From an uncultured Ruminococcus sp. (GTDB lineage Bacteria > Bacillota > Clostridia > Oscillospirales > CAG-272): a stretch of 64,000 bases of DNA. The first letter of the stretch is position 1. Each line of letters starts with the position of its first letter. This document shows positions 1,197-38,817 of this stretch, in pieces. Position numbers and translations under genes: made by a program. The notes below the pieces were generated by a model. It worked only from the letters and a program-made list of their open reading frames with translations, was not told the DNA's origin and ran no database searches. Where the stretch lies: contig CAZBQN010000005.1 of the NCBI GenBank assembly GCA_964494135.1, positions 934-64,933 of the forward strand, given 5' to 3'.

Positions 1197-4100
1197 TTAC
1201 TCTCCTCTGCCGTTGTAATTCGATACGCTCGCTCCGTAGTTGTATATCGCTTTCAGAAGCTCAAGCATATCCGACGGTTCACCGTTCTGTTTGGCATACA
1301 GATAGGAATTGACCGAATAGGTAAGCGACTGTCCTGTCTGCACTCCGTTAATATAGAATTCGGCTGTTATTTCCTTATCGAATTCAGCGGCGGCAATCCC
1401 CTGAATATATATTCTGTAACAGTCGCCCTGAGAGACGAAGGAGTCCTGACCGTATTCTATCTCTCTGCCGTTTATCCGCACCTTAACGGTAAGGTTATCG
1501 GTGCTTGTGCAACAGAAGCTCAAATAAACCGCTGTTGGATATTCCAAACGCAGTCCGGCACCTCGCCAGTAAACCGACTCGTTTTTCTCGCCGACAATGG
1601 ACTGCTTATTATACTCATCGCCGAGAGTCTCGAAGCTGCTCGGCTTAAGAAGCTCGCCCAAGCCATCCGTTGCAAGATTTTCGGTATTATATCCGGAGAC
1701 TGTCTGTGCCTTTGCTCCGTAAACCAGAAGGTCGGATAAGAGCGTTATGAGAAGCTCATCCGTGCTGTTTTTCAGTTGATACTCGCAGTATTCTCTGACG
1801 CTGTACCCGTCTTTCACAACCTTGACCTCTTCGCCGCCGTAGGTTGCGCAAAGAGTGGCTGTAATATTATCTCGGAACTGCTGAGGAAGAACACCGGACA
1901 GGATAAACGATGAGGTATGGTCGCCATTTTCTTTGCCGTAAACTTTAGTTGTCATACCGTTGCACTCAAAAAGCATATATACGTTCTCGTATCCGTCCGG
2001 AACGACGGCGGTATAGACGATATTAACGTCGTCCTTTATCAAGAGCGCGGCACTCTGAAGCTTGAACTCATAGGCAAGTCCTGCTGCCGCCTGCTGTAAG
2101 AAATACTCCGCGCTCGAAAGAGCAAAGGCGTTGGAATTTACGGAAGACAGCACCCTCTCGGCGTAGCCGACGGCGTTTTCAAATTCTTTTGCGCTCTCGG
2201 CGGTGTAATTATACCTGTTGTAGCCCGCCGTCAAGTCCGTCAGCGAGCCCTTCAGCGTTTCTCTGCCGGTGCTGAAGCTCTCATCCTTAGGCGAGCCGTA
2301 AACCCTCAGCTCGTTGACGTGGAACGCCGTGTTTCTTGAATGATACGTGCCTACCAACTTGACGTACCTTGCGTACATACCCGACACGGGGTAATCTATG
2401 CCTTCCGCCACGGGCTCTGAATTATCGGTCTTCTCCCCTGCGAGCACCCAGTTCTCGCCGTCGGCACTTACGTAGATTTCGTACTTATAGTACCGACCCG
2501 TGTCGACGTAATTTACAATATTTATTTTCTTAATATCGTAAAGTTCGCCTAAATCTACGGTGATATACGGACGAAGCTCGGGAGTATTTGCCAGCCTGTT
2601 CCAGGTGTCGTCGACTGACTCTCCGGTAAGCTTCGGAACATCTCCGCAGTCCCAGTAACTGCCGTTGCCCGCGTTTCCGTCCACCGCAAGGTTGCCTGTG
2701 CGCCAGGAATTTGAGCCGCTGACCGTAGTGTCCTTGCCCTGAGAAATCAGCGATCCTATCAAAGAGCCGTAAGCCTCCAGCTCTCTTATATGAATCTGAT
2801 TGTTGCTGGTCTGGTTGCTGCCCGTTCCCACAACCTTAATATAGCGCGCCTCGGTGGACGGCAAGGACGTAGGATTGCCTGATATGGTAGCGACGTCGTC
2901 CGTGTCTTTCGAATATGCCAAGGTATACGTAACGTTATCAAGGCTGGTGTAAACCTCATAGTGATACCAGCGCACGCCGTTGTTGTAGGTTATGACGTTA
3001 ATTTGCGTCAGTGCGTATATGTCACCCAGGTCAATTGTAATATACTTTTCCACATCGGCTGTGTCTGCGGAATCCCAAAGCGTACTCGTGCTTCCGTCGT
3101 TAACTTTGTTTGAACCGCTCGAATAGTTTGTACCTACGACCGGCTTGTTCAGCGCGATATTCGAAAGCTCCTCGGGCAGGAAGCACTCGGATAAAACTTT
3201 AGCGCACGCCTCGGCAAGAAAGGCGGGAGAAGAGTTCGGTATTCTCGTATATTCGGGAGAATTGATGACCCACTTCCAACAGAGGCGGAAGTAATCCGAA
3301 ACGGTTTTCGCCGCGTAAGCCTCTCCGCCTTCCAGCTCAGCCTCCAGCCCGTCAAGATAATTCTGCCATCTTGGCAGGTAAATATCGGTTAACATTCCCG
3401 AATAGTGGCGGCGTGAATAATCGAGAAGGGCGCCGGTAGTTGCGGCATCGTAGCCTCCCCAGGTCGTAACCAAAGCCTTTGCGTTGATGACGAACATATC
3501 GTAGGTGAAGTCGTCGTACTTTTCCGCCCAGTCCTCAGCCTTACCTATCCATTCGCCGACCAAAAGATCCTTCTGCGTGCTCTGTATAAGGTCGCAGACG
3601 TAAAAGGCACTCAAAAAGCTCTCCTTACATTTTTTGAAAGCGGCGGCGTCGCCCGAGCTATAGGCCTCCATCATCGTTTTGTAAATCGAAAGCGTATAAT
3701 TGTTTATAATCTGCCGCACAATCTCGGCTATATCGTAGCGATAGCCCTCGCTCTCACAGAGAGCCGTGTAGTCCGCAAGAAGAAGCTCTAACGCATCTTC
3801 AAGAACCGTCTCGTTGTAAGGAATATTCTGCACGGTTGCTTTTTCGGGGATACGCTCCATAACGTAGGGACGGTTTCCGGTATTACTGTACACCGTCTTG
3901 AGAAGAAGCTTCCATGCCTCAATTGCTTTTGCGGAGGCGGTACCGTAACGGCGGAGAATATAGCTCTCTATCCAGGAGTTAAGGTTAAAGCTTCCCAGCG
4001 ACTCCCTGTCCTCCCACACAAGAGATAGGAACAGGTCGTAGACGACGGGGTTATCGTAGGTTGCCTCGGAAATAATGCCGATACCCGTCATATACTCCGC

Positions 4101-23769: not shown

Positions 23770-25353
23770 TTATTTTCCGCTGTCGCCGTAGTTGGAAAGT
23801 ACTCTTGCCGACGGGTCGTTTACGTTACAGCCCTCCCAGGTTTTGTTGGGCATCCAGAAGTCTGCGACCATCTGTGACTGACCGGGATAATACTTCTCAA
23901 ATATCTCCCGATACAAGAGCGATTCTTTGGTAAAGGGGGAGGCGTGTACGTATTTCTTGCGTTTTTCCTCAAATTCCCCGTCGGTATATTTGCTCTCGGC
24001 GTACTCCTTCAGATAGTCAACCATAGAGTGTCCGACGGCATCCGAGAACGCCGCCTTCTCACGAAAGAGTATTTCGTCGGGCAGATAACCGCCATCCTCA
24101 AAGGCATGGCGAAGCAGGTACTTACCCTTGCCGTATTTGTTCATCTTGAGCTCCGGGTCAATGCTCATGACGTATCTGACGAAATCCAGATCGCCGAAGG
24201 GCACTCTGGCCTCCAGAGAGTTTACGGAAATACAGCGGTCTGCGCGGAGCACGTCGTACATATGAAGCTCCCGCACCCGCTTCTGCGACTCGCGCTGAAA
24301 TTCCGCGGCGCTCGGCGCGAAATCGGTATATTTATACCCGAACAGCTCATCCGAAATCTCACCGGTAAGAAGCACTCGAATGTCGGTTCTCTCATGGATA
24401 GCTTTACAGATAAGATACATACCCATGCTTGCTCTTATAGTGGTAATATCGTAGGTGCCGAGAAGCTCAATTACCCCCTCCAGCGAGGACAAAACCTCAT
24501 CCGGTGTCATATAAATCTCGGTATGGTCGCTGCCTATGTAGTCAGCAACCTGCTTTGCGTATTTGAGGTCAATCGCGTCCTCGCTCATACCTATGGCAAA
24601 GGTTTTTATGGGAGTTTTGCTCTTTCTCTGCGCTATGGCGCAAACCAGGGATGAGTCCAGCCCTCCGGATAGGAGAAATCCCACCTTCGCGTCTGCGACA
24701 AGGCGTTTTTCAACGCCCGAGATCAGCTTGTCGTGTATTTTGCGGCACACCGCGTCAAGTCCGTCGCCGCTGACCTTATCAACCGCCGCAATATCGGTAT
24801 AGCGGATAAACTCACCGCCTTTGTAGTAGCATCCGGGAGGAAAGGGCAGGATTTTTTCGACTATTCCTACTAAGTTCTTAGGCTCGCTGGCAAAAACGAT
24901 TACCCCTTTTTCGTCATAACCGTAGTACAGAGGCCGGATACCTATCGGGTCTCTTGACGCAATATATTCCTTATTCTCGCCGTCGTATATGATAAGGGCG
25001 TATTCCGCGTCAAGCATACCGAACATATCCGTGCCGTACTCGCGGTACATTGGCAGCAGTATTTCGCAGTCGCTGTCGCTTGAGAAGGTATAGCCTTTTT
25101 TCTTCAAGTCCTCGCGGATTTTCTCAAAGCCGTAGATTTCACCGTTGCATACAACGTAATCCGAGCCGAGGCGAAAGGGCTGCATACCCTCGGGGGTCAA
25201 GCCCATAATTGCCAGGCGGTGAAAACCGAGCAAGCCGGCACCCGTGTCAGCTAATTTACTGTCATCGGGACCTCTGGATACCGTGCGCCCGAAGGATGTG
25301 ACAAATTTGTCAATATCGGTACATTCACCGCAGTAGCCTATGATTGAACACAT
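23770..25353 (-). CDS. asnB: Asparagine synthase B (glutamine-hydrolysing)
   Basis: Starts MCSIIG (Ntn Cys2). RGPD, HRLAI, NGEIY, LSGGLDSS, EARVPF. Confidence 0.95.
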   Translation of the reverse strand: MCSIIGYCGECTDIDKFVTSFGRTVSRGPDDSKLADTGAGLLGFHRLAIMGLTPEGMQPFRLGSDYVVCNGEIYGFEKIREDLKKKGYTFSSDSDCEILLPMYREYGTDMFGMLDAEYALIIYDGENKEYIASRDPIGIRPLYYGYDEKGVIVFASEPKNLVGIVEKILPFPPGCYYKGGEFIRYTDIAAVDKVSGDGLDAVCRKIHDKLISGVEKRLVADAKVGFLLSGGLDSSLVCAIAQRKSKTPIKTFAIGMSEDAIDLKYAKQVADYIGSDHTEIYMTPDEVLSSLEGVIELLGTYDITTIRASMGMYLICKAIHERTDIRVLLTGEISDELFGYKYTDFAPSAAEFQRESQKRVRELHMYDVLRADRCISVNSLEARVPFGDLDFVRYVMSIDPELKMNKYGKGKYLLRHAFEDGGYLPDEILFREKAAFSDAVGHSMVDYLKEYAESKYTDGEFEEKRKKYVHASPFTKESLLYREIFEKYYPGQSQMVADFWMPNKTWEGCNVNDPSARVLSNYGDSGK

Positions 25354-25420
25354 ATTTAAAGCCTCCAAAGTACTGTATGCCGACGGAGCAAACATCCGTC
25401 GGCATTGATGTTTCTATAAA

Positions 25421-27163
25421 TTATTCCACATCCTGAAGTGCGTCGTAGCCTTCTTCTCCGGTACGAACCTTCACGACGTTTTCAATATCGTAAACGAAAA
25501 TCTTGCCGTCACCGATATGTCCGGTGTAAAGGGCCTTCTTTGCCGTTTCTATAACCTCGCGGACGGGTACCTTGCTGACGACGATGTCAACCTGTACCTT
25601 CGGCAAAAGATTTGCCTCCACGGGGACTCCGCGGTAGTATTCGGGCTTACCCTTCTGCATACCGCAGCCGAGAACGTGGGATACCGTCATTCCGGTAATG
25701 CCTATGCCCATCATTGCCGTTTTCAGAGTTTCAAGCCTTGCTTCCTTGCATATAATCTCAACCTTGGTGAACTTATGCGCCCCTTCTGCAAAGGAAGGAA
25801 CTTTCTTCACCGGAACAGCCTCTGCCGCGGGAACCTCGCCTGCAACAACCGTTGCCCCCTCGTAGCCGTAATCAACACTCTCAACTGCGGGAACAAAGTC
25901 AGCGTACGCGCTGGGAAGACCGTGCTCGGTAAGGTCAAGACCCTTAATCTGTTCTTCGTCGGATGCGCGAAGACCGATTGTTTTCTTGATTATAAAGAAT
26001 ACGAGAGTGATAGTAGCCGCAGTCCATGCGAGAATTGCAAGGATACCTACGAGCTGCTTGCCGAAAAGCTCAAAGCTTCCGGTATAGAAAAGACCGTTAA
26101 GACCTGCGGGAGCGGCAGGGTTTGCCAAAAGACCTACTGCCAGAGTACCCCATACACCGTTGACGAGGTGTACGCCGACAGCACCCACGGGGTCGTCTAT
26201 ATGAAGCTTCAAATCGAGAACCTCAACCGCGACGACGACGAGTATTCCCGAAACAACGCCGACGACTATTGAGCCGAGAGCATCAAGGGCGTCACAGCCT
26301 GCGGTAATACCGACAAGACCTGCCAGGGATGCGTTAAGGCACATCGACACGTCGGGCTTGCCGTTCTTAATCCAAGTGAAGAGCAAAGTAGTACAGGTGG
26401 CGACCGCGGGAGCAATTGTGGTAGTCAGGAATATAGATGCGAGCATGGAGCCGTCGGTTGCCGCCGCGCCGTTGAAGCCGTACCAGCCGAACCAGAGAAT
26501 AAAGCAGCCAAGGGCGCCGAGAGTAACCGAGTGGCCGGGAATTGCGTTGACCTTAGTCACCTTGCCCGTCGCCTTATCCTTGACGTACTTTCCGATTCGT
26601 GGACCGACCATAATGGCACCGATAAGAGCCATAAGACCGCCGACAGAGTGAATAGCGGCAGAGCCTGCGAAATCGTGAAAGCCCCACTGCGCGAGCCAGC
26701 CGTTCGGGTTCCACACCCAGCCTGCCTCAATAGGATAAATTACCAGTGAAATCACTGCGGAATAAACGCAGTATGATATGAACTTCGTTCTCTCCGCCAT
26801 AGCTCCCGATACTATCGTAGCAGCGGTAGCGCAGAACACGAGATTGAATACGAAGCTGGAAGCGTTCGTCTGAATAAAGCCGCCGAAGTCGGCGAATATA
26901 TTCATATTCGGAACGCCGATAATTCCGAGAACATAGTCCTCCGCCATCATAAGGCTGAAGCCCAAAAGCACGAACACAACCGTACCGATGCAGAAGTCCA
27001 TCAGGTTCTTCATAATGATGTTTCCCGCATTCTTCGCGCGGGTAAATCCGGTTTCAACCATAGCAAAGCCGGCTTGCATAAAGAACACGAGAGCTGCTCC
27101 TATCAGGAACCAGACGCCGAACACCTCTTCGCCTACCAGCTTAATAACATCAGATTCAAGCAT
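25421..27163 (-). CDS. amtB: Ammonium transporter fused to a C-terminal P-II domain
   Basis: Amt motifs FMQAGFAMVE, DFAGSAAIH and DDPVGAVGVH. P-II tail GMQKG...YRG...LLPK...TGHIGDGKIFV...VRTGE. Confidence 0.93.
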   Translation of the reverse strand: MLESDVIKLVGEEVFGVWFLIGAALVFFMQAGFAMVETGFTRAKNAGNIIMKNLMDFCIGTVVFVLLGFSLMMAEDYVLGIIGVPNMNIFADFGGFIQTNASSFVFNLVFCATAATIVSGAMAERTKFISYCVYSAVISLVIYPIEAGWVWNPNGWLAQWGFHDFAGSAAIHSVGGLMALIGAIMVGPRIGKYVKDKATGKVTKVNAIPGHSVTLGALGCFILWFGWYGFNGAAATDGSMLASIFLTTTIAPAVATCTTLLFTWIKNGKPDVSMCLNASLAGLVGITAGCDALDALGSIVVGVVSGILVVVAVEVLDLKLHIDDPVGAVGVHLVNGVWGTLAVGLLANPAAPAGLNGLFYTGSFELFGKQLVGILAILAWTAATITLVFFIIKKTIGLRASDEEQIKGLDLTEHGLPSAYADFVPAVESVDYGYEGATVVAGEVPAAEAVPVKKVPSFAEGAHKFTKVEIICKEARLETLKTAMMGIGITGMTVSHVLGCGMQKGKPEYYRGVPVEANLLPKVQVDIVVSKVPVREVIETAKKALYTGHIGDGKIFVYDIENVVKVRTGEEGYDALQDVE

Positions 27164-27267: not shown

Positions 27268-29364
27268 TTATTTTACCGAATAAAGCAGATCTCCGTAGGT
27301 GGGGAAGGGCCAGTATTCGGACGCGGTTACCGTCTCCGCCTCGTCACAGGCTACACGAAGCTCGCTCATAGCGGGGATAAGCAGGTCACGGACAGCATCC
27401 GCCTCCTCGCCTATCTCACCCTTTCCGGATACCTCAACCAGAACGCTCTCCAATTTGTCTGTGTTAACGGCAATTCTGTCGCAAAGGGCTGACAGCTTCT
27501 TTACCGTAGCCTTTTCGTAGCCGCAAGATATACCCGAGTCGAGCTGTATCTTCTTCTGTGCGTTTGCCGCCAGGTCGCTGGTATACGCCGCAACGGCGGG
27601 AAGGATCTGACGTCTGGACATTGAAGCCATGGTATTTGCCTCGATTATAACCGCCTTGCAGTAGTTCTCCAGAGTTATCTCGTAACGGGACTTCAGCTCC
27701 GCCTCTGTGAATATGCCGTGAGAGGTGAGCATCCTCACGTTCTTTTCGTCCAGCAGATGAGGCAGACAGTCTGGGGTCGTGCGATAATTGCAAAGACCTC
27801 TCTTTTCGGTCGCTTCCTTGATCCAGGAATCGTCGTAGCCGTTGCCGTTGAAAATAATTCTGCCGTGCTCCTTGATCGTTTCCTTTATCATCTCGTGCAG
27901 CTCACCCTCAAAGTCGGATGCGCCCTCAAGACGGTCGGCATATACCTTCAGCGACTCGGCAACCGCGGCGTTGAGCATGATGTTGGCGCAGGCGATGCTG
28001 TTGGACGAGCCGAGCATACGGAATTCGAACTTATTGCCGGTAAACGCAAAGGGAGAGGTACGGTTACGGTCGGTAGTATCTCTGTTGAATTTAGGAAGGA
28101 CGTCAACTCCCAGCTTCATCTGAGTCTTTGTTGCTCCGCTGTAGGGCGTGTCGTTTTTAATTGCCTCAAGAACGCCGTTCAGCTCGTCGCCGAGGAATAT
28201 AGATACCACAGCGGGAGGTGCCTCGTTTGCACCCAGACGGTGGTCGTTTCCTGCGGTGGCAACAGAAATTCTGAGAAGATCCTGATAATCGTCAACCGCC
28301 TTGATAACCGCGCAGAGGAAAAGCAAAAACTGTGCGTTCTCATAAGGGGTCTCGCCGGGAGAGAGCAGATTCTGTCCGCGGTCGGTGGCAATGGACCAGT
28401 TGTTGTGCTTACCGCTTCCGTTTACGCCTGCAAAGGGCTTCTCGTGAAGCAGGCATACAAGACCGTGCTTCAGGGCAACCTTCTGCATAATCTCCATAGT
28501 CAGCTGGTTATGGTCGGTAGCGATGTTGGTAGTGGAATAGATAGGTGCCAGCTCGTGCTGTGCGGGAGCAACCTCGTTGTGCTCGGTCTTTGCAAGCACG
28601 CCCAGCTTCCACAGCTCCTCGTTCAGCTCCTCCATATACGCCGCGACACGGGGCTTTATTACACCGAAATAGTGGTCATCCATCTCCTGTCCTTTAGGGG
28701 GCTTTGCACCGAAGAGGGTACGACCCGTGTAGACTAAATCACGTCTTTTCTCGTACATTTCACGGTCGACGAGGAAGTACTCCTGCTCGGGTCCGACAGA
28801 GCTGGTAACACGCTTCACATTAGTCTTGCCGAACAGCTTAAGTATGCGGAGCGCCTGCACGTTGAGTGCCTCCATGGAACGGAGCAAGGGCGTCTTCTTG
28901 TCAAGGGCCTCGCCGCCAAAGGAGCAGAACGCCGTGGGAATACAAAGCGTCTTTCCTTTAATAAAGGCAAAGGACGTAGGGTCCCAAGCGGTGTAGCCTC
29001 TCGCCTCGAAGGTAGCGCGTAAGCCACCCGAGGGGAAGGAGGACGCATCAGGCTCACCCTTGATAAGCTCCTTGCCCGAAAACTCCATAATGATACCGCC
29101 GTCGGGAGCAGGAGAGATAAAGCTGTCGTGCTTCTCTGCCGTAACGCCCGTCAAAGGCTGAAACCAGTGGGTGTAATGGGTCGCGCCCTTACTTACCGCC
29201 CAATCCTTCATTGCAGCGGCAACCGCGTTTGCAACGGTCAGATCCAGCTCCTTGCCCTCGTCGATAGTCTTTTTGAGGGAGGCGTAAACCTTACTGTCAA
29301 GGGTCGACTTCATTACTCTGTCGTCAAAAACCAAGCTGCCAAACATTTCTTTAACTTTTTCCAT
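27268..29364 (-). CDS. glnN: Glutamine synthetase type III
   Basis: [58 protein letters not shown]. 698 aa. Confidence 0.95.
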
Positions 29365-29410
29365 TTTATTTTCTCCTTTTGAAGGTTTTTTGCAAATTTC
29401 GTTTTTAATG

Positions 29411-29457
29411 AAAAACGGCGCCTCTCCTGCTTAATCCGCAAGAAAGACGCCTTTGCC
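29411..29457 (-). promoter_or_regulatory. Second ANTAR-type hairpin plus terminator in the GSIII leader
   Basis: AAGGC-AAAGGC-GTCTT. GGCGTCTTTCTTGC pairs with GCAGGAGAGGCGCC, followed by GTTTTT. Confidence 0.8.
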
Positions 29458-29523
29458 TTTTCTTCTATTTATTAATTAAATGCACTGCAAAGATAAATTG
29501 ACACAAAAGACTGCCACAAGTGT

Positions 29524-29581
29524 GAAAATCAGAAAGGGCAAGGGACTTTTTGGATTTACCAATCTAAGACGCCCTTGCCTT
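29524..29581 (-). promoter_or_regulatory. First ANTAR-type hairpin plus terminator in the GSIII leader
   Basis: AAGGC-AAGGGC-GTCTT. GGCAAGGG pairs with CCCTTGCC, followed by CTTTCTGATTTT. Confidence 0.75.
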
Positions 29582-29591
29582 TACGCGACTC

Positions 29592-29620
29592 ATTATACAC
29601 CCCGAAAAACCGTTTGTCAA
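29592..29620 (-). promoter_or_regulatory. sigma-A promoter of glnN-amtB-asnB
   Basis: TTGACA-N17-TATAAT. Confidence 0.9.
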
Positions 29621-29681
29621 GGGGTTTTTGAATTTTTCTTCAAAGAAAATTGCAAAATTTCATTTTTTCACCGAAAACGGC

Positions 29682-29710
29682 TTGACAATTTGCAAGTTTG
29701 GTGCTATAAT
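29682..29710 (+). promoter_or_regulatory. sigma-A promoter of the glutamate synthase operon
   Basis: TTGACA-N17-TATAAT. Confidence 0.9.
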
Positions 29711-29722
29711 GCTTGCATATAT

Positions 29723-29786
29723 GAGCAAAGGCGTTCATAGATAGCGGCGACTGCCGTTTTTTCGTGAGCCTTTGCTCTTTTCGTTT
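29723..29786 (+). promoter_or_regulatory. ANTAR-type hairpin plus terminator in the GOGAT leader
   Basis: GAGC-AAAGGC-GTTC. GAGCAAAGGC pairs perfectly with GCCTTTGCTC (29768-29777), followed by TTTTCGTTT. Confidence 0.8.
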
Positions 29787-29808
29787 ATGAAAGGCAACGG
29801 TTACTATT

Positions 29809-30903
29809 ATGTTAAAAGAAGGTCAGATACGTATTCCCTCCGGATGCGCCATTGCCGCCGTAATATCAAAGGACGGCGAAAGAATGTCGGGCAGACAGAT
29901 AATCGAGGCAATGAAGCCTATGCACGACCGCTCAAACGGCTTGGGCGGCGGCTTTGCCGCTTACGGCATTTATCCGGAATATAAAGACTTTTATGCTCTC
30001 CACTTTTTCTTTGACGACCGAAATACGAGAAAAAACTGCGAGGTATTCTTAAAGGAAAGATTTGAGATTGTGAAATCCGAGATAATTCCCACGAGGAAAA
30101 TCCCCGCAATCACCGACGAGCCGGTCATCTGGAGATACTTCGTCGCCCCTCTGCGCTCGGTGCTTGACTCGGCACAGCTGGACGAAAAGGAATTCGTCGT
30201 GCGCACGGTAATGAAGATAAACACCGAGATGCCCGGAGCTTACGTATTTTCAAGCGGAAAGAACATGGGCACCTTCAAGGCGGTGGGCTTCCCCGAGGAC
30301 GTAGGCGAATTTTACAGACTGGACGAATACGAGGGCTATTCCTGGACTGCCCACGGCAGATATCCCACCAACACCCCCGGCTGGTGGGGCGGCGCGCACC
30401 CTTTCACTCTGCTTGACTATTCCATTGTTCACAACGGAGAAATATCCTCCTACGACGCCAACAGAAGACATATCGAAATGTTCGGCTACAAGTGCAATCT
30501 TCAAACCGATACCGAGGTCATAACCTACATATTTGATTATCTGGTGCGCGTGCAGGGGCTTACTCTGTCCGAGGCGGCAAGCGTCGTCGCCGCTCCCTTC
30601 TGGAGCACTATCGAGAACAAGAGCGATCTTGATGACAAGAAGAAGCATATTTTCCTGCGCACGCTCTTCCCGGGTCTTCTCGTCACCGGACCCTTTTCCA
30701 TCGTCCTCGGCTACGACGGAGGTCTTATGGCACTGAACGACCGCCTGAAGCTGCGCTCAATGGTAGTAGGCGAGTGTGACGACAAGGTGTATATTGCAAG
30801 CGAGGAAGCCGCCATTCGGGTAATGGAGCCGAACGTGAAAAGCATCTGGGCACCGGCAGGCGGCGAGCCGGTTATCGTAAAAGTTAAGGAGGGCTGTTTC
30901 TGA
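29809..30903 (+). CDS. Class II glutamine amidotransferase domain of a split glutamate synthase (GltB1-like)
   Basis: Short propeptide then SG-C-AIAA, DRSNGLGGG, AHGRYPTNT, AHPF, VHNGEI, DRLKLR. Confidence 0.85.
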   Translation: MLKEGQIRIPSGCAIAAVISKDGERMSGRQIIEAMKPMHDRSNGLGGGFAAYGIYPEYKDFYALHFFFDDRNTRKNCEVFLKERFEIVKSEIIPTRKIPAITDEPVIWRYFVAPLRSVLDSAQLDEKEFVVRTVMKINTEMPGAYVFSSGKNMGTFKAVGFPEDVGEFYRLDEYEGYSWTAHGRYPTNTPGWWGGAHPFTLLDYSIVHNGEISSYDANRRHIEMFGYKCNLQTDTEVITYIFDYLVRVQGLTLSEAASVVAAPFWSTIENKSDLDDKKKHIFLRTLFPGLLVTGPFSIVLGYDGGLMALNDRLKLRSMVVGECDDKVYIASEEAAIRVMEPNVKSIWAPAGGEPVIVKVKEGCF

Positions 30904-32408
30904 TGGGAATCAATTATATATACCCCGAATTTGAAGTCGTAAGGTCGGACAGCCGCTGTATTGCCTGCCGCGTGTGCGAAAGGCAGTGTGCAAACGGTGT
31001 ACATTCCTACGACAAGGACCGCAAAATCATGCTCAGCGACGAAACGAAGTGCGTAAACTGTCAACGATGCGTATCCCTGTGCCCCACCCGAGCACTCAAG
31101 ATAGTCAAGAGCGACTGCCGTCTTCGGGAAAACGCCAACTGGCAACAGGACACGATAAACGAAATATACAAGCAGGCGGGCAGCGGTGCTGTGCTCCTGT
31201 CCTCTATGGGTAACCCGAAGCCCCTGCCCGTATACTGGGACAAAATTCTGATAAACGCCTCACAGGTAACCAATCCCCCCATAGACCCTCTGCGCGAGCC
31301 TATGGAAACAAAGGTATTCCTGGGCAAGAAGCCCGACAAACCGAGACGGGGCGAGGACGGCAAGCTAATATGCGAGCTTCCCCCTCAGCTTGAGCTGTCG
31401 ATGCCGATGATGTTCTCGGCGATGAGCTACGGGTCAATCAGCTACAACGCCCACGAGAGCCTTGCCAGAGCGGCGAGAGAGCTGGGCATTTACTACAACA
31501 CCGGCGAGGGCGGTCTGCACGAGGATTTCTACGTTTACGGCGACAACACCGTAGTACAGGTTGCGTCGGGCAGATTCGGCGTCCACGAGGAGTATCTGAA
31601 AGCAGGCGCGGCGGTTGAGATAAAGATGGGTCAGGGCGCAAAGCCCGGCATCGGCGGACATCTGCCCGGCGCGAAGATAGTCGGCGACGTGTCACGTACC
31701 CGTATGATTCCCGAGGGCTCGGACGCCATCTCCCCAGCACCCCATCACGACATATATTCCATTGAGGACCTGCGCCAGCTGGTATACTCGCTAAAGGAAG
31801 CGACCGAATACAAAAAGCCCATAATCGTCAAGGTGGCTGCGGTACACAATATCGCCGCAATTGCCAGCGGAATTGCCAGAAGCGGCGCGGATATTATAGC
31901 CATCGACGGCTTCCGCGGCGGCACGGGCGCGGCACCTACCAGAATTCGTGACAACGTCGGTATTCCTATCGAGCTTGCTTTGGCATCCGTGGACCAGCGT
32001 CTGCGGGACGAGGGAATAAGAAACAACGTTTCTCTCATAGTGGGCGGAAGCATTCGCTCTGCCGCCGACGTAGTAAAGGCAATAGCACTGGGTGCCGACG
32101 CCTGCTATATTGCCACAGCCGCGCTTATCGCCCTGGGCTGTCACTTGTGCCGTACCTGCCAGACCGGAAAGTGCAACTGGGGTATCGCAACCCAGCGTCC
32201 CGAGCTGGTAAAGCGGTTGAACCCCGACATAGGCTCCGGCAGGCTGGTAAACCTGATGCGCGCATGGCAGCATGAAATCAAGGAGCTGATGGGCGGTATG
32301 GGTATCAACTCGGTAGAAGCACTGCGCGGCAACCGCCTTATGCTCAGAGGCGTCGGACTTACCGACAGAGAGCTGAAAATTCTCGGCATATCCCACGCCG
32401 GCGAATAA
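30903..32408 (+). CDS. Ferredoxin + FMN-binding domain of a split glutamate synthase (GltB2-like)
   Basis: Two N-terminal CxxCxxC motifs. AMSYGS, NTGEGG, QVASGRFGV, EIKMGQGAKPGIGGHLPG, SPAPHHDIYSIEDL, GCHLCRTCQTGKC. Confidence 0.92.
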   Translation: MGINYIYPEFEVVRSDSRCIACRVCERQCANGVHSYDKDRKIMLSDETKCVNCQRCVSLCPTRALKIVKSDCRLRENANWQQDTINEIYKQAGSGAVLLSSMGNPKPLPVYWDKILINASQVTNPPIDPLREPMETKVFLGKKPDKPRRGEDGKLICELPPQLELSMPMMFSAMSYGSISYNAHESLARAARELGIYYNTGEGGLHEDFYVYGDNTVVQVASGRFGVHEEYLKAGAAVEIKMGQGAKPGIGGHLPGAKIVGDVSRTRMIPEGSDAISPAPHHDIYSIEDLRQLVYSLKEATEYKKPIIVKVAAVHNIAAIASGIARSGADIIAIDGFRGGTGAAPTRIRDNVGIPIELALASVDQRLRDEGIRNNVSLIVGGSIRSAADVVKAIALGADACYIATAALIALGCHLCRTCQTGKCNWGIATQRPELVKRLNPDIGSGRLVNLMRAWQHEIKELMGGMGINSVEALRGNRLMLRGVGLTDRELKILGISHAGE

Positions 32409-32553
32409 GGCGAAAAAAGTTATACAAGCCCGAACCCTTTTAATCAGCCGCAAGTGCCTTTAAAGGAAAACATAAACCTTTGTTGTCAAATAACTTGACA
32501 CGGGCCCCGGCATCGGCAAAGGTGCGTGCGGTATCAGGAGGAATATCAAAGGA

Positions 32554-32997
32554 ATGAAGCGAATATATGTAAATGAAAAATGGTGTCTCGGATGTCACCT
32601 GTGTGAATACAACTGTGCATTTGCAAACTCGGGGCTCTCCGACATGTCAGCGGCACTGAAGGGTAAGCCCATCTACCCCAGAATACACATTGAGGGAGAC
32701 GAGAGGGTTTCCTATGCGGTTTCCTGCCGTCACTGTACCGACCCAATATGTCAGAAAAGCTGTATTGCGGGCGCGATAACGGCAGAGGACGGAGTGGTGC
32801 GCATCAACAAAAGCAAGTGCGTGGGCTGTCACACCTGCGTTCTCGTCTGCCCCTACGGTGCGCTGGCAGCCTCCCCCGAGGGAGTTATGCAGAAATGCGA
32901 GCTGTGCCTGAAGAACAGCTGCGGTGAGCCCGCATGTGTCAAGGGCTGTCCCAACAACGCCATCGTATATGAGGAAAGGGGTGAAGAAAATGGCTGA
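32554..32997 (+). CDS. 4Fe-4S dicluster protein (CooF/HydN-like)
   Basis: CLGCHLCEYNC, CRHCTDPICQKSC, CVGCHTCVLVCPYG, KCELC...PACVKGCP. Confidence 0.9.
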   Translation: MKRIYVNEKWCLGCHLCEYNCAFANSGLSDMSAALKGKPIYPRIHIEGDERVSYAVSCRHCTDPICQKSCIAGAITAEDGVVRINKSKCVGCHTCVLVCPYGALAASPEGVMQKCELCLKNSCGEPACVKGCPNNAIVYEERGEENG

Positions 32998-34237
32998 ATA
33001 CGTAATTATCGGAGGAGGCGTCGCCGCCGTCGGGTGTATTGAAGGCATCAGAAGCGTTGACGGTACGTCGCCTATAACCGTTATTTGTGAGGAGAAGCAC
33101 CCCGTATACTGCCGTCCCCTCATCTCCTACTATCTGGAGGGAAAAACCACCCTCGAAAAAATGAATTACCGCCCGGATGACTTTTATGAGTCTCAGGGCT
33201 GCCGGATGCTCTTTGGCAGACGCGCCCTGTCGGTTGACAAAGACAGGAAGACCGTAGTGCTTGACGGAGGTGACACCCTGTCCTACACCTCCCTGTGCGT
33301 GGCGACCGGTTCTTCTCCTTTCGTGCCCCCTATCAAGGGGCTTGACGGTGTGAAAAACTGCTTCACGTTTATGACGCTTGACGACACGCTGGCACTGGAA
33401 AAGGCGATAAAGGAAAGCTCGCGGGTGCTGATCGTCGGCGCGGGTCTTATCGGACTGAAATGCGCGGAGGGCATCGCACAGCGGGTAGGAAGCATTACGG
33501 TCTGCGACCTTGCCCCCCGTATTCTTTCAAGTATTCTTGACGGCGAATGCGCGGCTATGATGCAGAAGGCCCTCGAAGAGCACGGGATTTCGCTTATGCT
33601 CGGCGACACGGTCTCGGAATTCCTGGGAAACCGCGCCCTGATGAAAAGCGGTAAAGCCGTTGACTTCGATATTCTGGTTATGGCGGTCGGCGTCCGCCCG
33701 AGCACCGCGCTGGTAAAGGATGCAGGCGGCGAGGTCAACCGCGGAATCATAGTTGACGAATATATGCGCACATCCCTTGACGGCATATACGCCGCCGGCG
33801 ACTGCACCGAGGGCATGGATATTTCCCTGGGAGCGAGAAGGGTCCTCGCCATTCTGCCAAACGCATATATGCAGGGTCACGCCGCAGGGGTGAATATGGC
33901 AGGGGGCAGCGAGAGCTTTGACAAGGCTATTCCCATGAACTCCATCGGGCTGTTCGGCACTCACGCAATTACGGCGGGAAGCTATTTCGGCTCTGACGAG
34001 GGCGGTGAAATTTTTGAGGAAAAGGGGGATGGCACGCTGAAGCGTTTTTACACGAAGGACGGCTTCCTGTGCGGTTACATCCTCATCGGCGACGTATGCA
34101 GAGCGGGAATTTACACCTCTCTCATTCGCGAAAAGGTGCCCCTTGACAGTTTGAACTTCGATTTACTCAAAAAAACTCCCGTTTTGTTCGCTTATTCTCA
34201 AAAAAAGCGTGGAAAAATTCTCGGAGGTGTGGTATAA
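32990..34237 (+). CDS. NAD(P)/FAD-dependent oxidoreductase (pyridine nucleotide-disulphide family)
   Basis: Start set at 32990. IIGGGVAA, ATGSSP, IVGAGLIG, IYAAGDC. Confidence 0.88.
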   Translation: MAEYVIIGGGVAAVGCIEGIRSVDGTSPITVICEEKHPVYCRPLISYYLEGKTTLEKMNYRPDDFYESQGCRMLFGRRALSVDKDRKTVVLDGGDTLSYTSLCVATGSSPFVPPIKGLDGVKNCFTFMTLDDTLALEKAIKESSRVLIVGAGLIGLKCAEGIAQRVGSITVCDLAPRILSSILDGECAAMMQKALEEHGISLMLGDTVSEFLGNRALMKSGKAVDFDILVMAVGVRPSTALVKDAGGEVNRGIIVDEYMRTSLDGIYAAGDCTEGMDISLGARRVLAILPNAYMQGHAAGVNMAGGSESFDKAIPMNSIGLFGTHAITAGSYFGSDEGGEIFEEKGDGTLKRFYTKDGFLCGYILIGDVCRAGIYTSLIREKVPLDSLNFDLLKKTPVLFAYSQKKRGKILGGVV

Positions 34238-34959
34238 TGATAAATATTGATGCAAAAGGTCTTGATTTCACCGCGCTGAACGAGGCAATCAGGGAGCACG
34301 ACTGCGACCTTGAAATTACGAACTGCCTCGGTCAGAGGTTCATAGCCTCGGGTATGTCGAGGAGGAAAATCAGGATAAAGGGCACGCCGGGCAACGCCCT
34401 GGGCGCATATCTGAACGGCGGCGAAATATACGTGGACGGGAACGCTCAGGATGCCGTCGGAGATACCATGAACGAGGGCTATATCGTCGTTGACGGCAAT
34501 ATCGGCGACGCCGCGGGCTACGCCATGCGAGGCGGAAAAATCTACGTCCGAGGCAATGCCGGCTACCGCGCCGGTATACATATGAAGGAATACAAGGAAA
34601 AGGTTCCGGTGATGATTATCGGCGGTAAGGCAGGCAGCTTTCTCGGCGAATATCAGGCAGGCGGAAAAATCATCGTCCTCGGTCTGTGCGACGACGGAAA
34701 GCCCATCGTCAGCAATTTTCCCTGCACGGGTATGCACGGCGGAAAAATGTATCTGCGCTCCGACTGTAAGGATTTAAGACTGCCCGACAAGGTAAAGGTA
34801 TCACGGGCTACCGAAGGCGATATGCTTGAAATCGTCGAATATCTGACCGAATATTGCGATATATTCGGACTTGACAAGGAGAAAATTCTCTCATCGGAAT
34901 TTACGGTAATCGTACCAGACACGAAAAATCCGTACAAGCAAATGTACGTAGCAAATTAA
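34237..34959 (+). CDS. GXGXG domain of a split glutamate synthase (GltB3-like)
   Basis: GQRFIA, GTPGNALGAYLNGG, GDAAGYAMRGG, FLGEYQAGG, GMHGG. Confidence 0.9.
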   Translation: MINIDAKGLDFTALNEAIREHDCDLEITNCLGQRFIASGMSRRKIRIKGTPGNALGAYLNGGEIYVDGNAQDAVGDTMNEGYIVVDGNIGDAAGYAMRGGKIYVRGNAGYRAGIHMKEYKEKVPVMIIGGKAGSFLGEYQAGGKIIVLGLCDDGKPIVSNFPCTGMHGGKMYLRSDCKDLRLPDKVKVSRATEGDMLEIVEYLTEYCDIFGLDKEKILSSEFTVIVPDTKNPYKQMYVAN

Positions 34960-34980: not shown

Positions 34981-36195
34981 ATGAAATACACGGCAGAGGA
35001 AGTTATGCAGTACGTAAACGAGGAGGACGTTAAGTTTATCCGCCTTGCATTCTGCGACATTTACGGCAAGCAAAAGAATATATCGATAATGCCCAGCGAG
35101 CTTCCCCGCGCGTTCTCGGACGGCATCGCCTTCGACGCCTCTGCCATTTCCGGATTTGGCGACGAGACCCATTCAGACCTTATTCTTCATCCCGACCCGT
35201 CAACCCTGTCGGTTCTGCCCTGGCGTCCCGAGCACGGCAGAGTGGTGCGCATGTTTTGCTCTATCACCCACCCCGACGGCACACCTGCCGAGTGCGACAC
35301 GAGAAGTCTGCTCATCCGTGCAGTGGAGGACGCAAGACTGGCGGGCGTGACCTTTGATTTCGGTCCGGAGCTGGAATTTTATCTTTTCAAATTGGACGAG
35401 CTCGGAAATAAGACGAGCATCCCTTATGACGAGGCGGGATATATGGACATTGCGCCCGAGGATAAGGGGGAGAACATTCGGCGTGAGATATGCCTGATGC
35501 TGGAGCAGATGGACATCCGTCCCGAAAGCTCACACCACGAGGAGGGGCCCGGTCAGAACGAGATAGACTTCCGCTATTCCGGTGCTCTCACCGCCGCAGA
35601 CAACGCCCAGACCTTTAAAACCGCAGTCAAGGCGGTTGCGGGCAGAAACGGACTGTGGGCAGATTTCAGCCCAAAGCCCTTGAAGGACAAGGCGGGAAAC
35701 GGCTTTCATATCAACATATCCGCCGACAGCGACGGAGGCAAGGACCTTCTGCCCCACATAATCGCGGGCATTCTCCGCTTCATCCCCGACATGACCGCCT
35801 TTCTCAATCCCACCGAAAATTCATACGCGCGCCTCGGCAAAAACAAGGCTCCCGCATATATTTCCTGGTCGGGCGAAAACCGTTCTCAGCTGGTCCGCCT
35901 GCCCGGTGCGGTATACGAGCACAAGAGAGTTGAGCTCCGCTCTCCCGACCCGACCGCCAATCCTTATATCTCCTTTGCCCTTCTGATTTACGCAGGTCTG
36001 TACGGAATAGAGAACAAGCTGACGCCGCCACCTGCCGCAGATATCAACTTCTTCCAGGCAGATGAGAGGACGCTGTCGAAATTCAAAAAGCTCCCCTCCA
36101 CGAAGGAAGAAGCTGTATCGCTGATGAGGGAGAGCGAATTTATAAAAGAGCATCTGCCGAAGCAGATAATAGAACATTACTGCAACAAGCGTTGA
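34981..36195 (+). CDS. Glutamine synthetase type I-like protein, degenerate and C-terminally truncated
   Basis: IRLAFCDIYG, GPELEFYLF, HHEEGPGQNEIDF, GNGFH, NRS, VELRSPDPTANPY. The flap reads RLGKNKAP instead of RLVPGYEAP. 404 aa. Confidence 0.88.
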   Translation: MKYTAEEVMQYVNEEDVKFIRLAFCDIYGKQKNISIMPSELPRAFSDGIAFDASAISGFGDETHSDLILHPDPSTLSVLPWRPEHGRVVRMFCSITHPDGTPAECDTRSLLIRAVEDARLAGVTFDFGPELEFYLFKLDELGNKTSIPYDEAGYMDIAPEDKGENIRREICLMLEQMDIRPESSHHEEGPGQNEIDFRYSGALTAADNAQTFKTAVKAVAGRNGLWADFSPKPLKDKAGNGFHINISADSDGGKDLLPHIIAGILRFIPDMTAFLNPTENSYARLGKNKAPAYISWSGENRSQLVRLPGAVYEHKRVELRSPDPTANPYISFALLIYAGLYGIENKLTPPPAADINFFQADERTLSKFKKLPSTKEEAVSLMRESEFIKEHLPKQIIEHYCNKR

Positions 36196-36233: not shown

Positions 36234-36818
36234 TTGAGCTTGCAAGAGCATGTTTACAGCGTGATGATAGTTTCCGCCTCGGAAGCCTTCAATTCCGCAT
36301 TGACCCCATTGCTTCCCGACTTCAAATTCACACCCGTCCGCATAGAAACCAGCGTTAATTCGGCAAAACGCACCCTGGCTGACCACCCATACGATTTTAT
36401 AGTAATCAATTCTCCCCTGCCCGACGACACGGGTGTCCGCTTTGCCATTGACGTTTCGGGGCTGAAAAGCTCGGTGGCGCTTCTCATGGTGCGCTCGGAT
36501 ATATACGCCGCCACCCAGAACAAGGTTGCCGAGCACGGCGTCTACGTACTGCCGAAGCCCACGTCAAAGCCCATTATAACCCAGGCGATAGACTGGATGA
36601 CAGCCACACTGGAAAGGCTCAAAAAGTTTCAGAAGAAAACAATGTCCACCGAGGAGAAAATGGAGGAGATACGTATCGTCAACCGTGCAAAGTGGGTATT
36701 GATAGACAGGCTGAAAATGACCGAGCAGGAGGCGCACCGCCATATTGAAAAGCAGGCGATGGACAGATGCACCTCAAAGCGCGAGGTCGCAGAAGAGATA
36801 ATAAAAATCTACACATAA
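36234..36818 (+). CDS. Pseudo-receiver + ANTAR RNA-binding antiterminator (NitR/AmiR-like)
   Basis: TTG start, RBS GAAAGGAGG. Receiver-like DFIVINSPLP. ANTAR motif IVNRAKWVLI...TEQEAHRHIEKQAMDR. Confidence 0.9.
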   Translation: MSLQEHVYSVMIVSASEAFNSALTPLLPDFKFTPVRIETSVNSAKRTLADHPYDFIVINSPLPDDTGVRFAIDVSGLKSSVALLMVRSDIYAATQNKVAEHGVYVLPKPTSKPIITQAIDWMTATLERLKKFQKKTMSTEEKMEEIRIVNRAKWVLIDRLKMTEQEAHRHIEKQAMDRCTSKREVAEEIIKIYT

Positions 36819-36856: not shown

Positions 36857-38185
36857 ATGTTTAATTCGCAAAATCTGGGAGTTAACTCTCAAAACCACCT
36901 TACGATAGGAAGCCACGACACGGTGGAGCTGGCTCGGAAATTCGGCACGCCCCTGTACGTTATGGACGAAGACCTGATGAGGAGCAACTGCCGCGCCTAC
37001 AAAGGTGCTTTGGATAATTACTACGACGGCAACGGACTTATCCTATTTGCGAGCAAGGCGCTCTGTACCGTGTACACAGGCAGACTGGTCGCAGAGGAGG
37101 GGCTGGGTGCCGACGTGGTATCCGGCGGTGAGCTTTACACCCTTTACAAGGCGGGCTTTCCCATGGATAAGGTGTTTTTCCACGGCAACAACAAGACCCG
37201 TGACGAGTTAGAGCTGGCAACCGACCTCGGCGTCGGCCATATCGTCGTCGACAACAAATACGAGCTCGAGCTTTTGAACGAGATAGCATCGAAGAAGGAA
37301 ATTACGGTGCATATCCTGTTCCGCATCAAGCCCGGAGTGGACGCGCACACCCACGATTTTGTCAGAACCGGTCAGATAGATTCAAAGTTCGGCGTTGCTC
37401 TTGAAAACGGCGAGGCATTCGAAATTCACAAGCTGGCACTGTCCATGAGCCATATCCGCGTCGACGGCGTGCACTGCCACATCGGCTCGCAGATATTCGA
37501 CGTTGAGCCCTTCTGCGAGGCCGCGCGGGTTATGATAGGCTTCGTCGCCGATCTGTACGAAAAGCTCGGTATCAAGGCAAAGATTCTCAACCTGGGCGGC
37601 GGCTTCGGCATAAAGTATACCTCCTCCGACGACCCCCTTGACCCCGCCGAATACATCAGGCAGGTCACGGACGTTGTGAAGACGGTGTCAGCTGAGCGGG
37701 GCATCGAGACTCCCTTCCTCGTATTTGAGCCGGGCAGGTCCATAGTTGCCACGGCGGGAATTACTCTCTATACAGTCGGATGCGTCAAGCACATTGAGAA
37801 CGTACGCACCTACGTTTCCATAGACGGTGGTATGTGCGACAACCCGAGATATATTCTCTACGGCTCAAAGTACACCGCAGTGCTGGCTAACAATGCGTCA
37901 GCCGAGCCCACAGCCCCCGTGACTATCGCCGGAAAATGCTGTGAGTCAGGCGACCTGATTCAGGAGCACGTAATGATGCCCGAAATACACGTAGGCGACA
38001 CTCTCGCCGTGCTTGCGACCGGCGCGTATAACTACTCTATGTCAAGCAACTACAACCGCATCCCCCGCCCTCCCATCGTTATGGTCAAGGGCGACGAGGC
38101 AAAGGTCATTGTCAAGCGCGAAACCTATGAGGATCTTATCAAAAACGATCTCTATGAGCCACAGACGGTTTTGCAGGAGGTTTGA
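36857..38185 (+). CDS. lysA: Diaminopimelate decarboxylase
   Basis: FGTPLYV, FASKA, DVVSGGEL, HCHIGSQI, NLGGGFG, EPGRSI, GKCCESGD, GAYNYSMSSNYN. Confidence 0.96.
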   Translation: MFNSQNLGVNSQNHLTIGSHDTVELARKFGTPLYVMDEDLMRSNCRAYKGALDNYYDGNGLILFASKALCTVYTGRLVAEEGLGADVVSGGELYTLYKAGFPMDKVFFHGNNKTRDELELATDLGVGHIVVDNKYELELLNEIASKKEITVHILFRIKPGVDAHTHDFVRTGQIDSKFGVALENGEAFEIHKLALSMSHIRVDGVHCHIGSQIFDVEPFCEAARVMIGFVADLYEKLGIKAKILNLGGGFGIKYTSSDDPLDPAEYIRQVTDVVKTVSAERGIETPFLVFEPGRSIVATAGITLYTVGCVKHIENVRTYVSIDGGMCDNPRYILYGSKYTAVLANNASAEPTAPVTIAGKCCESGDLIQEHVMMPEIHVGDTLAVLATGAYNYSMSSNYNRIPRPPIVMVKGDEAKVIVKRETYEDLIKNDLYEPQTVLQEV

Positions 38186-38714: not shown

Positions 38715-38817
38715 CCGAGCAACGCGAGGATTTCATCCGCCTGCGGCGGATTTCACACGTCTATGACGTATTTCACCCGAGCATATCGAGGATTTCATGT
38801 TCCGGGGGCTGCTTCAC
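38715..38817. repeat. Array of short hairpin + ATTTCA units (REP-like)
   Basis: ATTTCA at 38730, 38750, 38770 and 38792. Each is preceded by a small inverted repeat (for example CCGCC-TGC-GGCGG and ACGTC-TAT-GACGT). Confidence 0.7.

Follow-up and report, generated by a model that had tools for sequence, protein, structure and literature searches.

In Bacillus subtilis, the type I-alpha glutamine synthetase (GS; GSI-alpha) is an enzyme that doubles as a regulator, and its glutamine-bound form captures TnrA or the tail of GlnR by direct contact. In the AmiC-AmiR system of Pseudomonas aeruginosa and the NasS-NasT system of Paracoccus, a sensor sequesters a non-phosphorylated ANTAR protein, whose release leads to antitermination at a leader terminator. 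Here, we describe a locus that appears to bring the two principles together. It is located in a 64,000-nucleotide (nt) stretch of DNA from an uncultured Ruminococcus sp. (GenBank assembly GCA_964494135.1, contig CAZBQN010000005.1), the whole of which we call the window. The open reading frame (ORF) 34981-36195 codes for a GS-like protein of GSI-alpha descent, and an ANTAR antiterminator gene follows it. We propose, with a probability of about 0.7, that the GS-like protein is a GS-derived sensor, not the glutamine synthetase of the cell, and that it gates its ANTAR partner in response to a nitrogen ligand.

B. subtilis GS (BsGS; PDB 4lni, 4s0r, 7tf6-7tfe) has its fold and subfamily in common with the GS-like protein and is its best match in both sequence and structure. 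However, BsGS is a fully active dodecamer that senses through Arg62 and Glu304, where the GS-like protein has Asp and Lys, and it possesses a C-terminal segment that the GS-like protein lacks. The partners of BsGS bind DNA through a MerR-type domain, whereas the partner of the GS-like protein is predicted to bind RNA through its ANTAR domain, and catalysis in this cluster is apparently delegated to a type III GS (GSIII).

AmiC-AmiR and NasS-NasT resemble our locus in that adjacent genes code for a separate sensor and a pseudo-receiver ANTAR protein. AmiC and NasS have a periplasmic-binding-protein fold, unlike the GS-like protein, so that the likeness is one of functional analogy and not of family membership. 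Their ligands are amides or nitrate/nitrite, and their published targets are dual hexaloops, compared with one hexaloop per terminator here. The leader RNAs of EutV, NasR and AmiR share with those of the window an A1/G4 hexaloop, a conserved closing pair and an overlap with an intrinsic terminator. In contrast, the window leaders have a single hairpin per terminator and a near-fixed AARGGC loop, and the hairpin provides the 5′ strand of the terminator.

Two clostridia have a comparable gene order. The glnA-nitR-gltAB cluster of Clostridium saccharobutylicum groups a type I GS, an ANTAR regulator and glutamate synthase (GOGAT) genes, as here, and its ANTAR protein NitR induces the GS/GOGAT genes when nitrogen is limiting. 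In C. thermocellum, the GOGAT genes Clo1313_2032-2036 adjoin 2031, annotated as 'type I-alpha glnA', and 2030, which codes for a response regulator-ANTAR protein. C. thermocellum carries three GSIII genes and, beside ANTAR, a single type I gene, whose deletion 'deregulates nitrogen metabolism' according to the title of one report (Rydzak 2017). The papers on both organisms treat glnA as an enzyme, and their likeness to the window is one of gene order; the two GlnA proteins are less than 66% identical to the GS-like protein or were missed by our genome scan. In our literature search, no paper described a GS-like/ANTAR sensor pair, its residue signature or the AARGGC leader motif. We therefore rate the neighborhood in two clostridia as known already, and the combination of sensor-gated ANTAR antitermination with a GS as nitrogen receptor as new, though not categorically so.

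Residues and conservation of the GS-like protein

The GS-like ORF is preceded by an AGGAG ribosome-binding site, starts with ATG and ends with TGA. Its product matches the Pfam families Gln-synt_N (beta-grasp, 89 bits) and Gln-synt_C (297 bits), and its top solved relative is BsGS (4lnf, E=6e-103). It nevertheless falls under the equivalog cut-off of NCBIfam TIGR00653 for type I GlnA (352.1 versus 429.15 bits), and far under those of the remaining GS-family equivalogs, with partial matches to the gamma-glutamylputrescine synthetase and 'type III' GS models. An AlphaFold2 (AF2) monomer model made with 61 orthologues as input had a predicted local distance difference test score (pLDDT) of 89.7 and a predicted template modelling score (pTM) of 0.92. 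In Foldseek comparisons with the GSI-alpha structures of M. mazei, B. subtilis, P. polymyxa and S. aureus, the query-normalized template modelling score (TMq) was 0.94-0.95, with a range of 0.92-0.95 for BsGS, and the matched entries include some titled 'GS-TnrA complex' and 'GS-Q-GlnR peptide'. According to the model, the fold of the protein is that of GSI-alpha.

Residues were assigned by HMMER alignment to BsGS and by MAFFT alignments. The metal ligands are retained, namely E130 and E132 (GPELEF), E187, E194, H243 (GNGFH) and E318, as are the H185-H186-E187...E194 block, the ATP/glutamate arginines R284, R301 (NRS), R306 and R320 (VELRS), and also D52 (Asp50′) and Y154 (Tyr179). In BsGS numbering, the retained metal ligands are E132, E134, E189, E196, H245 and E333, and the retained arginines R298, R316, R321 and R335. 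In contrast, the flap VPGYEAP of BsGS has become GKN-KAP, with Lys289 in place of Glu304 and a one-residue deletion. Asp61 replaces Arg62, Ala238 replaces Asn240, and Ala55 replaces Bs Ser56 (St Ser53′). A deletion of 12 residues follows His243, where 'FKNGVNAFFDENADLQLSE' of BsGS corresponds to 'DSDGGKD'. We take the flap Glu304, Ser53′ and the Asn of the Asn264 loop to be residues for ammonium handling and active-site closure, and Arg62 to be a residue for glutamine feedback in BsGS.

The chain stops at about Bs residue 418-421 of 444, and the last ~23-26 residues, the 'helical thong' segment, are absent. The stop codon and the start of the next gene are 38 nt apart, so that this truncation is no frameshift artefact. 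In the GSI dodecamer, this C-terminal helix ties the two hexameric rings together; a single-ring, hexameric state is thus a reasonable prediction from the missing segment. The original prediction, made from the letters of the stretch, had listed the kept metal and substrate residues, the change of the flap from YEAP to NKAP, an Asp and an Ala at the Arg62 and Asn240 positions, a shortened internal segment and the loss of the last ~23 residues. The alignments agree with it on all of these and add the one-residue flap deletion and the Ser53′ to Ala55 replacement, which it had not mentioned. It had also named a hexamer, in place of a dodecamer, as a possible state.

We collected 197 distinct orthologous sequences that are 66-83% identical and 402-408 amino acids (aa) long. 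Lys289 is present in 197/197, and each of the 14 positions that bind metal, ATP or glutamate shows at least 99% conservation, a level reached by 105 of the 404 columns (26%). The ligand pocket and the flap Lys are thus under strong selection, and as judged from these alignments the residue pattern is not due to chance. Asp61 is found in 184/197 orthologues, and the Ser53′ position is Ala in 185/197. The orthologues extend 0-5 residues beyond the C-terminal end of the query, and none has the 'helical thong' segment.

A scan with one genome per species yielded at least 569 relatives with intact frames, of which the best 80 loci were examined; residues were also surveyed in 23 ANTAR-linked lineages of an ANTAR-anchored sample. 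Few of these lineages retain Arg62 (1/23), Asn240 (1/23) or Ser53′ (3/23), whereas Asp50′ (23/23) and the equivalents of Arg321 (23/23), Arg359 (22/23) and Glu131 (21/23) are near universal. By this survey, the residues kept across lineages are those holding the amino-acid ligand, and the family-wide marks are the losses of Arg62, Asn240 and Ser53′. The flap Glu, in contrast, is retained in 11/23 lineages. The E-to-K change, which had been put forward as possibly conserved in genes adjacent to ANTAR, is therefore invariant among the orthologues of the query and not a signature of the ANTAR association; in these alignments it is a trait fixed in the query lineage and a few relatives. At the level of the orthologues, the original prediction thus withstands its own refutation test.

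Several sister lineages have lost metal ligands, and each loss is stable throughout its lineage. In BsGS numbering, one carries E132S/E304L/R316Y/E333I, another E132K with E189K, and a third type E132R, E189S and E196I, and all are still ANTAR-linked. As the ANTAR link outlasts the metal ligands in these lineages, catalysis is dispensable in the family. The double Lys of the E132K/E189K lineage (loci L124-L126, L134, L139, L166 and L168), in which His245 is Ser or Thr, looks like a pseudoenzyme's way of mimicking the metal. In a rough neighbor-joining tree, one clade of 83 representatives holds all the ANTAR-verified proteins and no canonical GSI-alpha (Arg62, Asn240, YEAP). All ten ligands scored are present in 8/83, a value that overstates the decay relative to the ANTAR-anchored sample, as this library of 50%-identity representatives holds many fragments and very divergent singletons.

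Some individual relatives deserve mention. The L137 protein (1667-3058), 60% identical to the query, has the Lys flap and a full-length C-terminus, so that the E-to-K change seems older than the C-terminal truncation; at L171, the Lys flap occurs with a short C-terminus. We considered whether Asp61 and Lys289 represent the Arg62-Glu304 pair of BsGS with its charges swapped. Across lineages, no covariation links positions 62 and 304, and this idea is retained as no more than speculation. Two very long predicted proteins, P0121 (4424 aa) and P0122 (2757 aa), match the GS-like query in 12 and 6 separate places, respectively, at ~32-33% identity, and are either tandem GS-domain arrays or artefacts of assembly or gene calling.

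The ANTAR partner and the leader RNAs

The gene directly downstream codes for a protein with a clear ANTAR domain (Pfam, 63.8 bits) and a Response_reg match of 21 bits, under cut-off. In its pseudo-receiver, Ser14 and Ala15 replace the acidic pair and Asn59 replaces the phospho-Asp, aligning to the phospho-acceptor Asp of Rv1626, whereas Lys108-Pro109 is retained. Asn occupies the phospho-Asp position in 75/78 ANTAR partners, and likewise in distant clades. Since its receiver lacks the phospho-Asp and the acidic pair, the ANTAR protein is no ordinary response regulator; no kinase gene adjoins the ANTAR gene, either in the window or at related loci. Among solved structures, AmiR (1qo0) ranks second as a relative of the protein.

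Among the best 80 loci, the ANTAR gene lies directly 3′ of the GS-like gene in all 78 that have downstream DNA, with a gap of 17-50 nt. This count includes locus L009, where the GS-like gene is followed by a stand-alone ANTAR domain of 52 aa (3479-3660). The metagenome-assembled genome of L009 also carries a complete second GS-like/ANTAR pair, at L049. An ANTAR gene follows in 11/11 other clusters at 50% identity as well; their GS-like proteins are ~45-55% identical to the query, mostly 418-439 aa long and have a full C-terminus, and the ANTAR partners of these 11 distant clades are 187-191 aa long with the same pseudo-receiver. Conversely, in an ANTAR-anchored metagenome search, a GS-like gene ends at most 120 nt upstream in 50 of the 53 loci with enough upstream DNA. 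The order and a spacing of 2-50 nt are fixed across lineages whose ANTAR proteins share 36-45% identity, and the pair persists at loci without the GOGAT operon or GSIII. By these gene orders, the pairing is obligate and old. At L115 and L116, a gap of ~750-840 nt separates the two genes. Downstream of a canonical GSI-alpha gene (P0184, a single case on a 2-kb contig), the fragment present is non-ANTAR.

Three hairpins of the form NNNGC[AARGGC]GNNN are located in the divergent intergenic region between GSIII and the GOGAT-like operon, one before the operon and two before GSIII (Table 1). In each hexaloop, positions 1 and 4 are A and G, the ANTAR recognition signature. The hairpins alone are weak (-3.6 to -6.4 kcal/mol), whereas the full leaders fold as intrinsic terminators (-26 to -33 kcal/mol), and in all three leaders the hairpin and the terminator that overlaps it are mutually exclusive. 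In the GOGAT leader, the loop and 3′ arm of the hairpin form the 5′ strand of the terminator. The core 9-mer occurs eight times in the window, compared with 1.45 expected by chance, and five of the eight copies are inside coding sequence; a relaxed structural search of the window found no further intergenic copy of the hairpin.

In related loci, the hairpin/terminator arrangement, with a sigma-70-like promoter just 5′, is also found ahead of GSIII, gdh, the GOGAT operon and GS-like/ANTAR pairs that stand alone, and it reaches the distant lineages of L081 and L085. The stems covary: 94% of cells are paired, compared with 78% in shuffles and 42-60% in slid controls, and 46 cells show double changes, compared with 12.9 in shuffles. 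Neither value was reached in any of 500 shuffles. A classical second hexaloop was looked for beside each leader hairpin, and no conserved one was found. Conservation does not extend to the apical parts of the terminators, and we therefore adopted a single-hexaloop motif; the minimal ANTAR motif has been redefined as a single hexaloop (Walshe 2022, PMC8934654). No Rfam family matched the three leaders at gathering or permissive thresholds. Two hairpin/terminator modules stand in tandem before GSIII (29410-29582, minus strand), so that read-through there would need two antitermination events. Tandem modules were also seen at L010, L054, L056 and L058.

A model of ligand-gated antitermination and its alternatives

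As there is no phospho-switch, the pairing is constant and the ligand pocket is conserved without catalysis, the simplest model is that a GS-like oligomer gates the ANTAR protein. The leaders would terminate by default, and the ANTAR protein would have to stabilize the weak hairpin for read-through. To report the nitrogen status, the GS-like oligomer would bind a ligand, which is most likely glutamine and may be accompanied by ATP and metal. In nitrogen-rich cells, the ligand-bound oligomer would hold the ANTAR protein inactive by direct contact. A fall in ligand would free it to bind the hexaloop hairpin of the nascent leader, blocking the overlapping terminator, and read-through would switch on the GSIII, amtB/PII and asnB genes and the GOGAT-like operon. 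Since the GS-like and ANTAR genes end that operon, the sensor pair would be autoregulated.

What every lineage retains is the amino-acid subsite together with Asp50′, and glutamine is therefore the favored ligand. In the query lineage, co-binding of ATP and metal is possible, as is binding of 2-oxoglutarate as in an archaeal GSI-alpha (PDB 8ooq). We chose the sign of the regulation, with the ANTAR protein sequestered at high nitrogen, because of the NitR induction and the C. thermocellum glnA deletion reports. That deletion reportedly raises both the expression of nitrogen-assimilation genes and the level of glutamine.

The GSIII of the cluster is full-length compared with Bacteroides fragilis GlnN (3o6x, E=5e-190), and its flap motif is identical to that of 3o6x; the original prediction was thus right that this protein keeps its flap Glu. 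GSIII is apparently intact and likely to be the catalytic GS of the cluster. The same prediction had also proposed a sensory pseudo-enzyme tied to ANTAR, with GSIII doing the catalysis. The obligate pairing, the pseudo-receiver, the leaders, the decay of metal ligands in sister lineages and the intact GSIII all speak for this proposal, whereas the E-to-K change has lost its value as a family mark. Altogether, the comparative data strongly support a putative sensory, non-catalytic GS paralogue with GSIII as the catalyst.

Several points weigh against this interpretation. The metal/ATP site is complete and strongly conserved, as would also be expected of a working ligase, and some of the ANTAR-linked lineages that keep the flap Glu have the whole active site intact. 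Mutants of the flap Glu of Escherichia coli GS (Glu327) are impaired, yet not all partial reactions are abolished. The ancestral state may thus have been an active 'trigger enzyme', and the query clade may have some residual activity; we infer its lack of GS activity. Gene adjacency is no proof of a physical interaction between the two proteins. Instead of Gln, the GS-like protein could sense 2-oxoglutarate, Glu or ATP, and the sign of the regulation is drawn by analogy from other species. Finally, at one locus (L169, 3225-4570), an ANTAR gene directly follows the GXGXG gene, with no GS-like gene.

The alternative that survives best, although we regard it as unlikely, is that the GS-like protein is still an enzyme, either a slow GS in the role of 'trigger enzyme' or a gamma-glutamyl ligase that uses another amine acceptor, for which control of ANTAR would be a second job or none. 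In the ligase variant, the flap Lys in place of Glu would favor a neutral or anionic nucleophile. In its favor, the metal, ATP and glutamate ligands, along with Asp50′ and Tyr179, are at least 99% conserved among the orthologues, models for 'type III' GS and gamma-glutamylputrescine synthetase are matched in part, complete active sites occur in several sister lineages, and BsGS itself combines both roles. However, the flap Lys is invariant, Ser53′ and the Asn of the Asn264 loop are lost, and every enzyme equivalog model scores far under its cut-off. The sister lineages that lost metal ligands kept their ANTAR partner, the cluster itself codes for an intact GSIII, and in the loci examined no consistent neighbor suggests a new gamma-glutamyl pathway. 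Roughly half of the ANTAR-linked lineages might nevertheless be still-active 'trigger enzymes'.

We find it considerably less probable that the two genes are merely co-regulated, with the GS-like protein serving as a Gln/Glu-binding buffer or a modulator of GSIII/GOGAT, and the ANTAR protein sensing nitrogen through a ligand of its pseudo-receiver or through PII. The position of the pair at the end of a GOGAT-like operon in many loci would fit this, as would the presence of an AmtB-PII fusion within the regulon and the L169 locus, and one report has NasT binding cyclic di-GMP directly. Nevertheless, the pair stays together where GOGAT or GSIII is absent or located elsewhere, and its fixed order and 2-50 nt spacing are typical of partners such as AmiC/AmiR and NasS/NasT. 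That the gene is a functionless, decaying glnA remnant left after takeover by GSIII might be suggested by the lost catalytic and regulatory residues, the shortened loop and C-terminus and the fragmented copies at L127, L129 and L147, but it is effectively refuted by intact frames in at least 569 species-level genomes, a constant length of 402-408 aa, 105 columns conserved at 99% or more that include the whole ligand pocket and Lys289, and a confident AF2 model.

Across lineages, the neighbors of the pair are GSIII, amtB-PII, GOGAT, gdh, pyrG, carAB, asnB and NAD synthase genes, all of which make or use glutamine or ammonium. Extending the sensor model to the whole family is more tentative, and we put it at somewhat under even odds. 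The GS-like proteins would then be an unrecognized family of GS-derived pseudoenzymes and the intracellular glutamine receptor of Clostridia and related Firmicutes, acting as an anti-antiterminator that keeps hold of a phospho-independent ANTAR protein for as long as glutamine is high. Single-hexaloop riboregulators would in this way control GSIII, GOGAT, AmtB/PII, glutamate dehydrogenase (GDH) and the asparagine, CTP, carbamoyl-phosphate and NAD synthases, with the query lineage being a single-ring, Lys-flap version that binds ATP, metal and amino acid without turnover.

No nitrogen-sensing mechanism has been described for many abundant gut and rumen Clostridia or for the biofuel organism C. 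thermocellum, and the GS-like/ANTAR pair is a concrete candidate. If the model is true, it explains why C. thermocellum deleted for its type I GS shows deregulated nitrogen metabolism and not just a drop in glutamine. The gene is labelled 'glutamine synthetase' in hundreds of genomes, which leads metabolic reconstructions to include a GSI for these organisms although the protein probably makes no glutamine. From an evolutionary viewpoint, a moonlighting enzyme-regulator of the B. subtilis style would have turned into a dedicated pseudoenzyme, with parallel lineages at different stages of active-site decay. The ANTAR repertoire would also be widened by a new sensor fold and by single-hexaloop targets.

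Organization of the gene cluster in the window

The order in the window is asnB, AmtB-PII and GSIII on the minus strand, the divergent intergenic region, and then the GOGAT-like operon, the GS-like gene, the ANTAR gene and lysA on the plus strand (Table 1).

Table 1. Features of the GS-like/ANTAR cluster, in window coordinates
Feature	Coordinates	Strand	Description and basis
Asparagine synthase (asnB)	23770..25395	-	Glutamine-hydrolysing; next gene after AmtB-PII
AmtB-PII fusion	25421..27163	-	580 aa; ammonium transporter with C-terminal P-II; downstream of GSIII
GSIII (GlnN)	27268..29364	-	698 aa; Pfam GSIII_N, Gln-synt_C, Gln-synt_C-ter
Divergent intergenic region	29365-29808		444 bp
Second GSIII leader terminator	29410..29451	-	GGCGUCUUUCUUGC...GCAGGAGAGGCGCC then GUUUUUC; overlaps second hairpin; minimum free energy (MFE) -27.1 kcal/mol, z = -5.0; folding
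Second GSIII leader hairpin	29444..29459	-	AAGGC[AAAGGC]GUCUU
First GSIII leader terminator	29524..29582	-	Overlaps first hairpin; MFE -25.8 kcal/mol; folding
First (promoter-proximal) GSIII leader hairpin	29566..29581	-	AAGGC[AAGGGC]GUCUU
GOGAT-like operon leader hairpin	29721..29738	+	AUGAGC[AAAGGC]GUUCAU; candidate ANTAR site
GOGAT-leader terminator	29723..29786	+	MFE -32.9 kcal/mol, z = -3.6, then UUUUCGUUU; folding
Split GOGAT-like operon	29809..34959	+	Pfam; gene order kept in most of 80 loci
GATase_2 protein	29809-30903	+	GOGAT-like operon
Glu_synthase with Fer4 (FMN/Fe-S protein)	30903-32408	+	GOGAT-like operon
Fer4 (ferredoxin) protein	32554-32997	+	GOGAT-like operon
Pyr_redox_2 protein	about 32993-34237	+	GOGAT-like operon
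GXGXG protein	34237-34959	+	GOGAT-like operon
GS-like protein	34981..36195	+	404 aa; GSI-alpha descent; Pfam, HMMER/MAFFT alignments, AF2, Foldseek
ANTAR antiterminator	36234..36818	+	194 aa; TTG start, AGGAGG ribosome-binding site; Pfam, column statistics
Diaminopimelate decarboxylase (lysA)	36857-38185	+	38 nt past the ANTAR gene
Gut-1 RNA (RF01706)	38725-38800	-	Rfam; 53 bits, E=1.2e-7

The same AmtB-PII fusion stands beside GSIII in the distant loci L081 and L085, and it probably belongs to the same regulated unit as GSIII, as asnB may also. A paper on C. thermocellum states that the GOGAT activity of the equivalent cluster was never measured. No obvious terminator separates lysA from the ANTAR gene, and lysA may be co-transcribed with the sensor pair; it also follows the ANTAR gene at L011 and L012. 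The sole match in the window at the Rfam gathering score was the Gut-1 RNA, which is flanked by cytidine-deaminase-like and uridine-kinase-like genes.

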